From: an uncultured Actinomycetota bacterium
GTDB taxonomy: Bacteria > Actinomycetota > Actinomycetes > JAHEKZ01
NCBI GenBank assembly: GCA_963829525.1
Contig: CAWHIJ010000003.1
Coordinates: forward strand, 2,272,001-2,336,000
Length of the DNA: 64,000 nt
Direction: 5' to 3'
Every line of letters begins with the position of its first letter. The stretch's first letter is position 1. The notes under the pieces were generated by a model that was given only the letters and a program-made list of their open reading frames with translations, was not told the DNA's origin and did not search any database. Of this stretch, positions 29,636-44,379 are shown piece by piece. The translations under genes and the position numbers were made by a program.

Positions 29636-29700
29636 TCGAACCAACCGTCGGCCAACCATCAGCCAAGCGCCTCGGCCTCGCACCGAAGGTCAGCGAAGAG

Positions 29701-29722
29701 TGTCGGAGGTAGGTGGCAGGGT
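29701..29722 (+). promoter_or_regulatory. PafBC-type (RecA-NDp) promoter, leaderless
   Basis: TGTCGG-N10-CAGGGT, 7 nt before ATG 29730. Confidence 0.65.
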
Positions 29723-29729
29723 TAGCTTC

Positions 29730-31028
29730 ATGCAGAGTTCACCGGACCCCATCGCGCAGCAGGTCGTCGACCTGGTGTGCTCCGGGGCGCCGCTGGGTGA
29801 TCGCGAGGACTCGCACCTTGTCGACCTGCTCGCCCAACTGGAGCGTCTCGCCAATGCAGCTGGCGCTGTCCAGGCAGAGGTGATAGTCGAGATGTCGCGG
29901 CGGGCCCAGCGCGCCGATGGCGAGGACGAGCGGCAGCGAGGTCGGACGCTGATACCGCACGAAGGGCGCGCTGAGTTCGTCCCAGACGAGGTGGCCGTCA
30001 CCCTCGCGTGCACCAAGGCAGTCGCGGCGCAACGGTACGGGCTCGCGCTGGCCGTCTCCGAGCACCCGGCGGTACTGGCCGCCTGGAGGCGCGGCACTAT
30101 CGACGCACGCAAGGTGCAGGTGATCTGCGACGGCCTGACCGACGTGTCCAGCCCGGCTGTAGAGGTCCTCGCCGAAGAGGCTGCCTGCTACGCGGCTTCC
30201 CGCACCGCACCCGAGGTTCGGCGCTGGTTGTCCCGTCGGGTGATCACTGCCGACCCCGGCATGGCCGAGATCCGGCGCATCCGGGCCAGCGCCGACCGGA
30301 AGGTCACGGTGACGCCACTATCCGACGGCGTCTCCGAGCTCTATGCGCTGCTGCCGAGCGTGCAGGCGCGACAGGTGTACGACTCGGTCAACGCCCTGGC
30401 CTACGCGTGCGCTGCCGACGATGCCCGGACCATGGACCAGAGGCGCGCCGACGCCCTGATGGACCTCATCTGCGGGCGGGCCGACCCTCCACAGGTGAAT
30501 GTGCAGGTCGTGGTGCCGGTCGACACCCTTCTCGGGGAGTCAGCAGAACCCGCCAATGTATTCGGTGTCGGACCTATCACGGCTACCGAAGCGCTCCAAC
30601 TGGCCGGACTTAGTGCGCCCGCACCGTGTGGTTGCCAGGACATGTCACCGGCACCTCACGACGTCGTCTTCCGCCGGTTGCTCACCGACCCCGACACCGG
30701 CTATCTCGTCGATGTCGCCGAGCGTCAGTACCGGCCGTCCCCTCAGCTCGACCGTACGGTCCGCAGCCGCGACGGCGTATGCCGCTTCCCCGGCTGCAAC
30801 CGCCCCGCCACGACCACCCGCTCCGGCACCGACCTCGACCACACCATCCCGTGGCCACGCGGCCAGACCACGGCAGCCAACCTCGCCGTCCTGTGCCGGC
30901 ACCACCACCGCCTCAAGCACTCACCGGGGTGGAGAGCCGAGCTCGGTTCCGATGGCGTCATGGAGTGGACGTCGCCAGCGGGCCAGATGTTCCGCACCGA
31001 ACCGTGGGTGTACGCCGACACCGGATAG
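29730..31028 (+). CDS. DUF222 domain / HNH endonuclease (13E12-repeat family)
   Basis: DARTMDQRRADAL, YRPS, RDGVCRFPGC...DLDHTIPW...NLAVLCRHHHRLKH. Confidence 0.92.
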   Translation: MQSSPDPIAQQVVDLVCSGAPLGDREDSHLVDLLAQLERLANAAGAVQAEVIVEMSRRAQRADGEDERQRGRTLIPHEGRAEFVPDEVAVTLACTKAVAAQRYGLALAVSEHPAVLAAWRRGTIDARKVQVICDGLTDVSSPAVEVLAEEAACYAASRTAPEVRRWLSRRVITADPGMAEIRRIRASADRKVTVTPLSDGVSELYALLPSVQARQVYDSVNALAYACAADDARTMDQRRADALMDLICGRADPPQVNVQVVVPVDTLLGESAEPANVFGVGPITATEALQLAGLSAPAPCGCQDMSPAPHDVVFRRLLTDPDTGYLVDVAERQYRPSPQLDRTVRSRDGVCRFPGCNRPATTTRSGTDLDHTIPWPRGQTTAANLAVLCRHHHRLKHSPGWRAELGSDGVMEWTSPAGQMFRTEPWVYADTG

Positions 31029-40078: not shown

Positions 40079-41264
40079 GTGGGCATCAAACTCGAGTCGA
40101 GCGGCGGCGTTGGATCAAACGGCGGCGCCACGTCCCGATCGCGGACTGTTGTACTGGTGGTCGCGGTTGTGCTCGTGGTCGCGGCGGTCGCTGTCATCGG
40201 CACTCAGTGGAAGGTGCTGCCGTGGGTACCCGACGCGGCAACCTTCGGGACGGCAAGTCCGCCCGACGCCTCCTCGACCCCGCCCGATGTGGGCGAGCCC
40301 ATCGACCTGGCCACCGACCTTGCCGTGCCATGGGGGCTGACGTTCTTGCCCGACGGACGTGCGTTGGTCGGCGAGCGAACCACCGGTGAAGTCAGCGTGA
40401 TTGTCCCCGGAGAGGCTCGCCGCGCCGATCGGCACCGTTCCCGACGTTGCCGACAATGGTGAGGGTGGTCTGCTCGGCATCGTCGCCTCGCCCACGTTCG
40501 AGGACGACCAACTCATCTACGCCTACGTGACGACGAACATCGACAACCGCGTGATCACGATGGAGCTCGGCGACGACGTACTGCGTAATCCGATGCCGAT
40601 ACTGACCGGCATCCCCGACGAGTCCTACCACGACGGTGGTCGTCTGCTGTTTGGGCCAGATGGAATGCTCTACGTCACCACGGGGGATGCTGGTGTGCCC
40701 GAGAACGCCCAGGACCTTTCGTCGTTGTCAGGGAAGATCCTTCGCGTGAATGCGGACGGCTCAGTCCCCGACGACAACCCATTCGCTGGCTCACCTGTGT
40801 GGAGCTATGGACATCGCAACGTCCAAGGCCTGGCCTTCGACGACGACGGACGGCTCTGGGCGTCGGAGTTCGGCTCGTCCGCCTACGACGAGCTCAATCT
40901 GATCGAACCAGGAGCGAACTACGGGTGGCCGGAGGTCGAGGGCGTCGGCGGTGAGGTGTCCGAGACGAGCGGGTTCGTCGACCCGCAAGTCACCTGGCCG
41001 ACCAGTGAGGCCTCCCCCAGCGGACTGGCATGGCTCGGCGGCGTGCTCTACATGGGCGCGCTCCGTGGCGAGCGTCTCTGGGAGATACCCGTCAGCGGTG
41101 ATACGGCCCAGGAGCCGACTGCTGCCCTTGAAGGGGAGCTAGGGCGCATCCGCACCGTCGTGGTGGCACCCGACGGCGACCTGTGGCTGACCACGAGCAA
41201 TACCGACGGGCGCGGGGACCCGCGCGATGGTGACGACCGTGTGGTTCGCGTCAGCCTCAGCTGA
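40079..41264 (+). CDS. PQQ-dependent glucose/sorbosone dehydrogenase family (frameshift near 40405)
   Basis: VPWGL, GEGGLLG, HDGGRL, GHRNVQG, NYGWP; start uncertain. Confidence 0.88.
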
Positions 41265-41363
41265 CACACGGTTAGCCGAGGTGGTAGCCCTCCTGGGGCC
41301 GGAGCAGTAGGTGCGTGTGTCTGGTTGCTCGCAGAACGCGTCGGAATTTCAGCCTGGGTGTCT

Positions 41364-41385
41364 TGTCGGTGGGTTGGTTTAGCGT
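41364..41385 (+). promoter_or_regulatory. PafBC-type (RecA-NDp) promoter
   Basis: Exact TGTCGG-N10-TAGCGT. Confidence 0.8.
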
Positions 41386-41537
41386 GGGTGTTGTTGGTAG
41401 CGGTAGTGAGATGAAGGTGATGGAACCCCCGTCGTACTGGTGTGCTGGTGGTACTGGTGCTACCGGTAGCGCGGGGTTCGATGAGACCAGGTGATGGCCG
41501 CTGCTGGTCCTGGTTGTCGTCGGAAGGTCGCTGGTCG

Positions 41538-42821
41538 ATGTTTACCCCTGAGGTGTTGCCGGAGCCGTTGCTTGCGGTGCTTGGTCAGGTGCGGGCTTGG
41601 TCCGGTGCCGATGCCCGGCAGGCTTTGGTGGGCGCTGACGCTCAGACCCGTGCGGGCTGGGTGGTGGGGTTGCAGCAGCTTGCTGATGCGGTCGCGGTGG
41701 CGAACCTGGCGGCGGTGGCGGCGTTCGACGCTGCGGGTGACGGCCAGGTGCTGCATGGTGCGGCGTCGACGCAGGCGTGGATCCGGGGTGCGTGCCGGGT
41801 GAGCGGTGCGGAGGCCGCTGAGCGGGTCAGGATCGCCCGGGCCGCTCGCGGGTTCCTCGGCGGCGCGGTCAGCAAGGTGGGTGAAGGCTTGTTGACCTAT
41901 GACCACCTACGCGCGGTCGAACGCGGCGTGCGGCACATTCCGCAGTCCCGGCAACCGGCGGCGGTGACCGTGCTGACCGACCTGGCCGAGGTCGGGTCGG
42001 TCACCGATGTGCGGACCGCCGGCAAGCACCTGCAGTTCGTGGTCGACCCCGACGGGTCTCTGGCCGACAGCTGTCAGCAGTTCGACCGCCGGTATCTGAC
42101 CCTGGCTCCGTTGCTGGATGGGATGACCTCCCTGGGCGGCCTCCTCGACGCTGAATCAGCCGCCCTGTTGACCGCGGCCCTAGAGCCGTTCCTGGTCCCT
42201 GCCGACGCCGCTGACACCCGCACCGCCGCGCAACGCCGCGCCGACGGGCTGGTCCAGATCGTCGCCTCCGCCGCCGACCAGGCGCTGCTCCCGGTCATCG
42301 GGGGTGAACGCCCCCACCTGCACGTGATCATCGACCCGCGCAGGCCTGCTTCAGATGTCCCCGGCGACACCGATCCAGCGACGCTGCCGCCGGGGCGGCT
42401 CCCGCAAGCACCCGGCGGTTCGGCGTTCCTGCACCCGGTGGCGGTGGCCCGGATCGGCTGCGACGCGCAGCTGACCGCGCTGCTCCTCGACGACCACGGC
42501 GTCGTGGTCGACCTCGGCCGCACCCGGCGGCTGTTCTCCCCGCAGCAGCGACGATTGCTCGCCGCCCGCGACGGCGGCTGCCGCTTCCCCGGCTGCGACC
42601 GGCCACCGGCCCACACCGACGCCCACCACCTGGTCCCCTGGCACGAAGGAGGCACCACCGACCTCGCCAACGCCCTACTGCTGTGCCGCCACCACCACAG
42701 AGCCGTCCACGAAGGCAAATGGACCCTGAACACGGCAAACCCCGAACGGGGAACCCACGGACCCATCACAGTCACCAGCCCCACCGGCCAACAACTCACC
42801 ACCCACCCCCGCGCACCCTGA
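41538..42821 (+). CDS. DUF222 domain / HNH endonuclease (13E12-repeat family)
   Basis: DTRTAAQRRADGL, GERPHL, LGRTRRLF, RDGGCRFPGC...AHHLVPW.EGG.TDLAN..LLCRHHHRAVH. Confidence 0.93.
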   Translation: MFTPEVLPEPLLAVLGQVRAWSGADARQALVGADAQTRAGWVVGLQQLADAVAVANLAAVAAFDAAGDGQVLHGAASTQAWIRGACRVSGAEAAERVRIARAARGFLGGAVSKVGEGLLTYDHLRAVERGVRHIPQSRQPAAVTVLTDLAEVGSVTDVRTAGKHLQFVVDPDGSLADSCQQFDRRYLTLAPLLDGMTSLGGLLDAESAALLTAALEPFLVPADAADTRTAAQRRADGLVQIVASAADQALLPVIGGERPHLHVIIDPRRPASDVPGDTDPATLPPGRLPQAPGGSAFLHPVAVARIGCDAQLTALLLDDHGVVVDLGRTRRLFSPQQRRLLAARDGGCRFPGCDRPPAHTDAHHLVPWHEGGTTDLANALLLCRHHHRAVHEGKWTLNTANPERGTHGPITVTSPTGQQLTTHPRAP

Positions 42822-42849
42822 CCGAATCCGGTACTGACGCGACCTCCGC

Positions 42850-44379
42850 TCAGCTCGGTGGCACGCCGACCCTCTCGAGGATGAGCTCGCGGACGCGTCC
42901 TGCATCCGCCTTGCCGGCGGTCGCCTTCATCACCGCACCGACGATTGCTCCTGCGGCCTGCACTTTGCCGTCGCGAATCTTGGCGGCGATATCCGGTTGC
43001 GCTGCGAGTGCGGCGTCGACAGCCTCGAGCAGGGCACCGTCGTCGGAGACGATGGCGAGCCCGCGCGCAAGAACGACTTCATCTGGACTGCCCTCACCGG
43101 CGAGCACTCCCTCGATCACCTGGCGAGCGAGTTTGTCGTTGAGCGAGCCTTCTGATGTGAGCACAATGATTCGATGAACGTCTGAAGGGGTGATCGGCAG
43201 CTCCGCCACGTCGAGTCCCCGCTCGTTGGAAATGCGGGAGATCTCACCCGTCCACCACTTGCGGGCATCTGCGGAGTCGGCTCCGAGAGCCACCGTCTGC
43301 TCCACCAGTTCGAGGGCCCCGGCGTTGATCAGTGACTGCATGTCGTGCTCGGAGATCCCCCACTCCTCACGCAGTCGCGCCCTGCGCTGAAGCGGCGGTT
43401 CGGGCAAGGTAGAACGCAGCGCCTCGATCCACTCTGCATCCGGCGCTACTGGCGTGAGATCGGGCTCTGGGAAGTAGCGGTAGTCCTCAGCCTCCTCCTT
43501 GACCCGCCCAGACGTGGTCGACCCGTCGTTCTCGTGAAAGTGACGAGTCTCTTGAATGATCGTTCCACCGGACTGCAGCACCGCCGCCTGCCGCTGGATC
43601 TCGAAGCGAACAGCGCGTTCGACCGAACGGATTGAGTTGACGTTCTTCGTCTCGGTACGGGTTCCGAACTCAGTCCGGCCCCGCGGCTTCAACGACAGGT
43701 TGGCATCTACCCGCATCGAACCCTGGTGCATGTGCGCATCAGAGACCCCAAGTGCAACGATCAGCTCACGGAGCTCCGTGACGTACGCCCTGGCGACGGA
43801 CGGCGCCAAAGCGGGCTCGACCTCGATCGGCTTCGTGACGATCTCGATGAGTGGAACACCAGCTCGGTTGTAGTCGATCAGCGAGTAGTCGGCGCCGTGG
43901 ATACGACCGGTTGCGCCGCCGACGTGCAAGATCTTGCCAGTGTCCTCTTCCATGTGCGCCCGCTCGATTCCCACCGTCAGGGGGCGGGGGCCGTCATCGG
44001 TTTCGACCAAGATCTCGAGCGCTCCGTTGAACGCGATCGGTTCGTCGTACTGCGACGTCTGGAAGTCCTTGGGCATGTCCGGGTAGAAGTAGTTCTTGCG
44101 CGCAAACCGCGACCAGTCAGCGATCGAGCAGCCCAAAGCGAGCCCGATCCGGACGGCCGACTCAACCGCCTTCTCGTTGACGACAGGGAGCGCTCCGGGG
44201 AGTCCAAGGCACACGGGGCAGACCTGCGTGTTCGGTGGCGCACCGAACACGGTTGGGCACCCGCAGAACATCTTGGTCAGCGTATTGAGCTCGACATGCA
44301 CCTCAAGACCCATGACTGGGTCGAAGGTGGCGATGGCGTCCTCGAACGACATCAGCGGCTCTGTCGTGTCAGCGGTCAT
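42850..44379 (-). CDS. gatB: Asp/Glu-tRNA amidotransferase subunit B
   Basis: [37 protein letters not shown]. Confidence 0.98.

Follow-up and report, generated by a model that had tools for sequence, protein, structure and literature searches.

A probable selfish DUF222-HNH nuclease cassette with a damage-type promoter and a flip in silent-site strand bias

We analyzed a stretch of 64,000 nucleotides (the window) from the genome of an uncultured Actinomycetota bacterium, in which a cassette consisting of a promoter, a leader, and a gene for a DUF222-HNH protein lies between the gene for a glucose/sorbosone dehydrogenase (GSDH) and gatB. Coordinates are positions in this 64-kb window, unless they are preceded by C3, the 2.94-Mb contig of the 2.96-Mb genome studied (G000). 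GSDH (plus strand) and gatB (minus strand) converge on the insert, and the DUF222-HNH open reading frame (ORF) is the only ORF within it (Table 1). An earlier note on this DNA had proposed that the locus is a self-contained unit with a damage-inducible promoter and without a transposase, which may move or amplify through a single-stranded fold-back intermediate. No transposase gene was found among the ORFs and Pfam matches of the insert and its neighbors, which comprise only the DUF222-HNH gene, GSDH, and GatB, and a Pfam scan of the same region revealed no HUH gene. The description as a self-contained unit is supported as well: the insert contains a conserved promoter of the damage type and a leader of its own, its HNH gene is intact, and the convergent junction in which it lies is empty elsewhere. 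Scans of the locus for sigma-70 promoters and for hairpin terminators returned none, and the search for a guide-RNA family in Rfam gave one sub-threshold match (E 0.98), located outside the unit.

Table 1. Features of the insert between GSDH and gatB and of its flanks
Feature	Position in window	Strand	Basis or remark
GSDH gene, 3' part (host, left flank)	40401..41264	+	PF07995, E 4.6e-72; adjoins gatB in empty-site genomes
Whole insert, GSDH stop to gatB stop, 1585 nt	41265..42849	+	Short or empty junctions in G003, G009, G010, G002, G026, G032, G030
G+T-rich (keto) end: promoter, leader, about the first 90 codons	41300..41800	+	G+T 0.63-0.80 per 60 nt
PafBC/RecA-NDp-type promoter, TGTCGGTG-N8-TAGCGT	41364..41385	+	One of 6 strict matches; motif in 11 of 12 subfamily copies
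Structured 5' leader (predicted)	41386..41534	+	Alignment of 10 leaders, shuffle and slide controls
DUF222-HNH ORF, 428 amino acids plus stop	41535..42821	+	PF02720 97.7 bits, PF01844 27.4 bits
HNH nuclease core, Cys/His and Asn residues	42594..42713	+	Pfam HNH at residues 385-424 of the 459-amino-acid frame
A+C-rich (amino) end: last ~80 codons, 31-nt 3' tail	42580..42852	+	G+T 0.25-0.32 per 60 nt
gatB (right flank, converging on the insert)	42850..44379	-	PF02934, E 4e-108; PF02637, E 3.9e-37

Comparison with related copies places the real start of the protein at ATG 41535, and a GGAAGG ribosome-binding site near 41517 is kept together with an ATG or GTG start. The protein therefore has 428 amino acids and its leader is about 150 nt long; the longer frame from GTG-41442 (41442-42821, plus strand, 459 amino acids), which is the frame that was scored by Pfam, is probably not used. 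An alignment of 10 leaders contains two predicted helices, P1 (41396-41401 with 41500-41505) and P2 (41423-41429 with 41473-41479). Of the cells in the paired columns, 88.6% were paired, compared with 82.0% in shuffles (0 of 500 were as high), and the value dropped to 30-58% when the alignment was slid. Both sides had changed in 6 of 14 leader pairs. These results support the prediction that the secondary structure of the leader is conserved. The loop of P2 in this copy contains a G+T-rich insert of about 40 nt (41430-41472) that is absent from all related leaders and includes internal repeats (TACTGGTG...) as well as, at 41444-41451, GCTGGTGG, which we take to be the E. coli Chi octamer.

The promoter had been assigned to the PafBC type in the earlier note, and the assignment holds: the sequence given in Table 1 is an exact match to TGTCRGTG-N8-TAnnnT, which we take to be the PafBC/RecA-NDp motif. 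When the 2.94-Mb contig was scanned with the strict pattern TGTC[AG]GTG-N8-TAnnnT, there were six matches, which belong to the cassette, a second copy that is 98.5% identical to it (copy B, described below), uvrB, uvrA, a DEDDh-exonuclease/GIY-YIG gene, and an ORF of 107 amino acids. The motif is conserved upstream of 11 of the 12 copies of the cassette's subfamily, which come from 9 genomes. By its motif, the cassette would be placed in the PafBC (RecA-NDp) regulon, and it has this motif in common with uvrA, uvrB, and the exonuclease gene of the same genome. Two adjacent WYL-domain genes (C3:1773231 and C3:1774217) are a candidate pafBC pair, in the tandem arrangement that such a pair would have. 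PafBC is reported to act through RecA-NDp (PMC6789036, PMC8223512, PMC2897130). The 107-amino-acid ORF behind one of the strict motifs (L116, C3:1513253-1513573) has no Pfam match and is divergent from the exonuclease/GIY-YIG gene, which has a motif of its own.

The protein belongs to the DUF222-HNH family. Its PF02720 (DUF222) score compares with a cut-off of 24.4 bits (E 1e-27), and the HNH domain is recognized as PF01844. The HNH site is intact, as the earlier note had reported: in an alignment of 79 homologues, the residues C349, C354, H364, H365, N379, C384, H387, H388, and H392 occupy invariant or nearly invariant columns, and the HNH core as a whole contains invariant C, H, N, and W columns. 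An AlphaFold2 model derived from these homologues had a mean pLDDT of 88. A Foldseek search of this model against the PDB gave no match at E <= 0.001; in a wide structural search, the modeled HNH part resembled TagI (Z 8.2), McrA (Z 7.2), and the HNH domain of IscB (Z 6.2), and in a sequence search of solved structures only the HNH part found matches (IscB, E 8.8e-7). The core is similar to the McrA/TagI-type and IscB-type HNH nucleases in sequence and in predicted fold, over only about 80 residues, and the cassette protein differs from these nucleases in that it has no RuvC domain, no modified-base reader, and no match to a guide-RNA family. The N-terminal helical part gave Z scores of 5.3-7.0 with the DNA-binding domains of ParB, Spo0J, and KorB; helical proteins can score this high by chance, and we treat these matches as a lead only.

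The junction that the cassette occupies is empty in other genomes. In G003, G009, and G010, the stop codons of GSDH and gatB overlap (CTAG) or lie no more than about 15 nt apart, in G002 the spacer is shorter than about 200 nt and mostly empty, and in three distant relatives (G026, G032, and G030) the junction is likewise short or near-empty. The search for empty alleles at this site, which the earlier note had suggested, was therefore positive in four congeners and nearly so in three more distant genomes. Because distant genera carry the compact, empty junction, we conclude that the empty state is the older one. Besides G000, an A-type cassette is present at the junction in G013 and G001, and apparently in G008, G006, and G007, in which contigs break inside the element (several of the congeners are fragmented drafts). 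In G012 and G004, a DUF222-HNH gene of a different lineage lies at the gatB end of the junction, and in G027, from another family, a DUF222-HNH gene is oppositely oriented and adjoins the GSDH stop. DUF222 was not found in five other larger junction stretches, one of which (L123 of G025) carries no weight. Presence or absence among genomes at one conserved site and independent occupation of the same site, here by the G012/G004 lineage and by the oppositely oriented gene of G027, are features of homing-type elements.

The end of GatB itself differs between the two groups of genomes. In the empty genomes the protein ends in ...ERV(S/T)G(V/A/T), followed by a TAG that overlaps or abuts the GSDH stop, and in the genomes occupied by an A-type cassette it ends in ...ERVG plus four residues, followed by TGA, two codons later. 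A 7-nt direct repeat, CTCAGCT, brackets the insert (41256-41262 and 42849-42855), and merging its two copies into one would create the palindrome TCAGCTGA, in which the stops of the two genes overlap. In the G013 junction there is no common word of 6 nt or more, and the corresponding check of the G001 junction is unreliable. We therefore treat CTCAGCT as probably a chance repeat rather than a target duplication; no duplication is consistent across copies, and the earlier statement that there is no obvious target duplication stands.

The cassette is one of many dispersed copies. Across about 19 loci, G000 has 20 matches to PF02720; 14 are full-length ORFs and several are broken. Ten of its DUF222 copies share 24-49% amino-acid identity with one another, and a converging downstream neighbor is present at 11 of the 14 full-length copies. 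Strong DUF222 matches also occur in all 13 congeners (2-12 in each), and 12,029 cluster representatives are of the DUF222-HNH kind at E <= 1e-10. The closest relative of the cassette within the genome is copy B (C3:220193-221665), a frameshifted copy on the opposite strand, 2 Mb away, between an EamA transporter gene and an aminotransferase gene. It is 98.5% identical over 1389 nt (41472-42852 of the window), and its promoter region is 86% identical, while the start of its leader cannot be aligned. The identity ends precisely with the final base of the gatB stop codon, at 42852, so that this codon (TCA on the plus strand, 42850-42852) is the last triplet of the repeat. The 11 differences are all located within the first 54% of the repeat, leaving its last 642 nt free of changes; by simple arithmetic, the chance of such clustering under an even spread is about 0.001.

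Related copies in other species are 77-83% identical to this cassette. In one contig of G008 (C46, L022), the left flank of copy B, on the EamA side, is joined to the cassette and gatB, which represents either an inversion between the two copies (A and B) or an assembly chimera in this 570-contig draft. Inversions between 13E12 copies have been described for M. tuberculosis (PMC13157036). The join suggests that both the A locus and the B locus are older than the split of the G000 and G008 species; if so, the 98.5% identity between A and B, compared with 83% between species, is the result of gene conversion, because both loci then predate the split. Contigs assembled from public runs break at the ends of the repeat, with none that joins across the insert and none that changes strand, and are uninformative either way. 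Short tandem repeats (units of 8, 16, 17, and ~30 nt) start at or just past the stop codon of several DUF222 genes, some of them repeating the stop codon itself; they were observed at the 3' flanks of the C3 copies at 2146939, 596402, and 2652545 and of copy B (220193). Tandem Repeats Finder (TRF) detected such repeats in 4 of 19 copies and in 130 of 2332 other genes (Fisher p 0.02), and a similar 15-nt duplication is present in the copy of G008.

The best explanation of these findings is probably that the locus holds a free-standing, damage-inducible DUF222-HNH selfish nuclease cassette of the 13E12 type, which spreads by recombination repair and not by transposition or fold-back. It builds on features that we observed, namely the family membership of the protein, the conserved promoter and the repair genes that share it, the structured leader, the insertion polymorphism at the junction, and the homogenized twin. 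In the process that we envisage, DNA damage would activate PafBC, which would fire the TGTCGGTG-N8-TAGCGT promoter and give rise to a transcript that opens with the conserved folded leader, probably tuning translation. The protein, with a helical N-terminal part that in the model is probably DNA-binding and a C-terminal McrA/IscB-like HNH part, would nick or cut DNA while the host recombination machinery is induced. Recombination repair would then copy cassette sequence from one locus to another, or into the intergenic space of converging gene pairs, and the outcome would be about 19 dispersed copies, two old copies that are kept near-identical by gene conversion, and rearrangements between copies. 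Of these steps, we infer the induction, the specificity of the nuclease, and the role of the nuclease itself in starting the copying.

Several points weigh against this explanation. Within G000 the strict promoter is found at only 2 of the 19 DUF222 loci. The identity of the element to its counterparts in other species is about the same as that of its flanks, so this copy bears no sign of recent transfer. A gatB tree built for 12 genomes places the four with empty sites in one clade (86/88) and five A-type genomes in another (92/92), and G001 groups with G012 and G004. As the tree represents a single 1-kb gene and was rooted at its midpoint, gains, replacement, and loss are indistinguishable within the genus, where one old gain plus inheritance, or loss, could take the place of recent movement. 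In the literature that we searched, no nuclease activity or target has been reported for any DUF222-HNH protein. Finally, the flip in strand bias described below is left unexplained by this account.

We also considered that the DUF222-HNH genes may be a resident family of host repair nucleases that is not mobile, so that the empty junctions would have arisen by deletion and the similar copies by ordinary duplication. A promoter that puts the gene in a repair regulon is what such a family would be expected to have, and it would accommodate both the single clade of empty-site genomes and the similar divergence of element and flanks. Against this, the compact, empty junction of distant genera makes the empty state ancestral, one junction has three different occupants or orientations, the approximately 19 copies are divergent and several are broken, and the copies lie preferentially between converging genes. 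We consider the resident-family explanation quite unlikely, and we favor the selfish cassette.

The fold-back model in the earlier note offers a different route of spread, in which the cassette moves or amplifies as single-stranded DNA (ssDNA), its G+T-rich 5' end folding on its A+C-rich 3' end, with processing by its own HNH nuclease. The complementary words that had been listed for the two ends are present, but the pairing is weak, and the alignment is no better than that of shuffled sequences: the left end aligned to the reverse complement of the right end with a local score of 19, compared with 18.2 +/- 2.9 for arm-wise dinucleotide shuffles, 381 of 1000 of which did as well. The predicted duplex of the ends of this copy is more stable than most shuffles, with 6, 2, and 14 of 300 as low for three choices of window under RNA parameters and 1 of 200 (z -3.07) under DNA parameters, but the duplex energy is unremarkable in copy B (15 of 200) and in the copies of G008 (49 of 200), G013 (40 of 200), and G001 (81 of 200). 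One nominal hit among five copies is to be expected from selection, because this copy was chosen for looking paired. Similarly, aligning one half of this gene against the other gave a z of 4.27 relative to phase-keeping shuffles, but 25 ordinary genes had a mean of 1.74 and reached 4.04, and 13 DUF222 genes had a mean of 2.07.

Comparison of the copies also argues against a fold-back structure. Copy B has an identical right end and a left end with TTGGTAG in place of the TTGTTGG of this copy, with no compensatory change, and the copies of G008, G013, and G001 have either lost or altered the outermost pair, cgcgtc/gacgcg. The conserved left-end bases pair closer by, inside the 5' leader (P1 and P2), and the only hairpins conserved among the copies are those of the leader; there are no conserved terminal inverted repeats and no conserved subterminal hairpins, and the end pairing is unusual in just one of five copies, without covariation. 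The opposite bias of the ends would ease any fold of this kind, and the earlier note had itself cautioned that opposite skews inflate chance complementarity. We conclude that the end complementarity is a by-product of the opposite base bias and not a fold-back structure, and that the appeal of the fold-back model is a side effect of this bias. The flip speaks against a single ssDNA intermediate for a further reason, because one exposed strand would be expected to become keto-rich throughout. Among known systems, the closest to the fold-back idea is the "peel and paste" movement of IS200/IS605 elements, which proceeds through ssDNA intermediates with folded ends and needs an HUH transposase and conserved subterminal hairpins; the cassette has neither, and it has no strand-wide bias. 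Movement by fold-back is, in our assessment, highly unlikely.

The flip in strand bias is real. Our counts of G+T at 41341-41400 (48 of 60) and of A+C at 42761-42820 (49 of 60) reproduce those of the earlier note exactly, and the trend extends into third codon positions, as it had stated, with G3/(G3+C3) values of 0.76, 0.63, 0.52, 0.31, 0.43, and 0.16 over six segments. At fourfold-degenerate sites, G/(G+C) in successive fifths of the ORF is 0.79, 0.49, 0.39, 0.53, and 0.18. A codon-plus-neighbor model based on the other genes of the genome predicts only 0.40-0.50 (mean ~0.45, first fifth 0.44), and we therefore rejected codon and neighbor context as the cause of the flip. Among 372 long ORFs, this gene ranks first by head-tail flip at all third positions; the gene calls for the background sets are crude and GC3-based.

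For comparison among genes we used a stricter head-tail metric, obtained by subtracting G/(G+C) at fourfold sites in the last 249 nt from the value in the first 300 nt. The 14 full-length paralogs in G000 had a mean of +0.26, with 13 positive and 10 above 0.2, compared with a mean of -0.003 (standard deviation 0.13, 59 above 0.2) for 957 other G000 genes (Mann-Whitney p 9e-8; this and the following p values are overstated, because kin are not independent). The value for this cassette, 0.56, is the largest of the 14. In congeners, 33 DUF222 ORFs had a mean of +0.14 (25 positive, 11 above 0.2, and none below -0.2), compared with +0.03 for 28 neighboring ORFs at the same loci (p 0.065), and the high values came mostly from the A-type subfamily (0.19-0.58). 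In more distant genomes, 64 DUF222 ORFs had a mean of +0.04 (13 above 0.2 and 6 below -0.2), compared with -0.007 for 260 flanking ORFs (p 0.17). The survey of skew over many DUF222 loci, as suggested in the earlier note, thus gave a divided result, with a positive skew in nearly all of the paralogs and a weak or absent one in the wider family. A first family-wide test at all third positions (67 ORFs, +0.10 versus 0.002) was withdrawn because differences in amino-acid composition confound it.

The bias is confined to the cassette. In a profile of the 14 copies around the stop codon, G+T is 0.36-0.40 in the last 250 nt and 0.49 directly past the stop. In eight A-type genes, the head has A.06, C.29, G.46, T.19 at fourfold sites; the corresponding values are A.11, C.68, G.15, T.06 for the tail and A.11, C.41, G.34, T.14 for the genome. 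Read on the other strand, the tail becomes A.06, C.15, G.68, T.11, so that at either end the inward strand, read 5'-to-3', contains much G and little C or A. The flip is thus located at silent sites, limited to the cassette, and lineage-specific, and we take it to reflect strand-asymmetric mutation or composition-level selection within the cassette. Among its possible causes, we rank inward DNA synthesis or single-strandedness level with transcription and R-loops, and both ahead of selection at the RNA level, all as candidates only.

In the first of these, the bias would be a scar of DNA synthesis or single-strandedness that proceeded inward from both ends during repeated two-ended break repair (homing or gene conversion); the top strand would be exposed on the left side and the bottom strand on the right side. 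With an inward strand that is G-rich and C- and A-poor at both ends, the bias has the geometry of a replication terminus, and the restriction of the bias to the cassette, with its end at the stop codon, its location at silent sites where codon context does not explain it, and its uneven distribution among lineages, as expected of a historical footprint, are all consistent with such a scar. The family is also prone to recombination, as judged from copies A and B and from PMC13061034. The scar predicts less well that the middle 60% of the gene is near background, without a linear gradient, and that T is enriched at the 5' end only. Spontaneous deamination per repair event, at established rates, would be far too rare, so that an error-prone polymerase or enzyme-driven damage would be needed. 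We regard this origin as unlikely. If it were correct, the skew would provide, for the first time, a read-out at the sequence level of the propagation of 13E12-type DUF222-HNH elements, and it could distinguish active lineages from dormant ones.

The second candidate, transcription, is in our view unlikely to the same degree. Damage-induced sense transcription would expose the non-template strand at the 5' end, antisense read-through from the neighbor (here gatB) would expose the other strand at the 3' end, and R-loops of G-rich RNA would possibly reinforce the bias. The cassette has what appears from its sequence to be a strong inducible-type promoter at the left, most of the full-length copies have a converging neighbor, no terminator-like site was found between the cassette and gatB, and inward transcription would make G-rich RNA from both ends. 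However, the G+T-rich stretch starts ~60-85 nt upstream of the predicted transcription start. We rejected a converging neighbor as the cause of the tail bias, as 284 ordinary genes with such a neighbor no more than 100 nt away have a tail value of 0.451 compared with 0.446 in the middle, and we also rejected a link between skew and the promoter motif (0.17 versus 0.11, p 0.58).

Selection at the RNA level could act at either end. A G/U-rich, structured leader together with slow 5' codons would limit the translation of a harmful nuclease, and at the 3' end abundant C and scarce G would create a loading site for Rho or provide fast codons, shielding gatB from antisense transcription. The conservation and predicted structure of the leader would fit the former, and the latter could account for the high C content of the tail at fourfold sites (68% compared with 41% in the genome) and for a locus in which the scan found no hairpin terminator. 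However, a Rho site inside a translated frame would be unusual, and the wider family has no skew on average. In addition, close copies that bear the promoter (L143, L152, and L161) have no skew (0.01-0.06), and the skew is therefore not needed for function. We consider selection at the RNA level quite unlikely, more so than the scar or transcription.

Among known systems, the selfish cassette that we favor is closest to the 13E12 repeat family (REP13E12) of M. tuberculosis, which is the DUF222 family (PMC13157036; PMC10589994). The cassette has the same domain architecture, a multicopy dispersed distribution, and a damage-type promoter. In M. tuberculosis, gene conversion is enriched in 13E12 genes (87 events, affecting 10 of the 14 genes; PMC13061034), and these genes are reported to overlap inversion breakpoints and to be induced by DNA damage (PMC13157036); the cassette family likewise has copies homogenized by gene conversion and possible rearrangement breakpoints. 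It differs in belonging to a small environmental actinobacterium and in having an insertion site that can be defined against empty junctions. Neither a silent-site skew flip nor a structured leader is described for 13E12 or DUF222 in the passages that our literature search covered.

Free-standing HNH homing endonuclease genes occur in phages and organelles (for example I-HmuI and mobE). The cassette resembles them as a selfish nuclease gene without a transposase that is present or absent at a conserved site, and by analogy it too would be expected to spread through host break repair. It differs from them in lying between genes, and not in an intron or between essential phage genes, in having an unrelated N-terminal DUF222 part, and in the host-type control implied by a damage-regulon promoter. 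DUF222-HNH genes are very widespread, and they are hotspots of gene conversion and inversion in M. tuberculosis (PMC13061034, PMC13157036). For this family, the locus offers a clean comparison of filled and empty junctions and a conserved damage-type promoter with a structured leader, as well as a strong, lineage-specific strand bias at silent sites for which any mechanism must account.

The window contains a second, divergent full-length DUF222-HNH paralog at 29700-31028 on the plus strand (C3:2301700-2303028). It has a converging neighbor 36 nt past its stop codon, and its head-tail skew is likewise positive.

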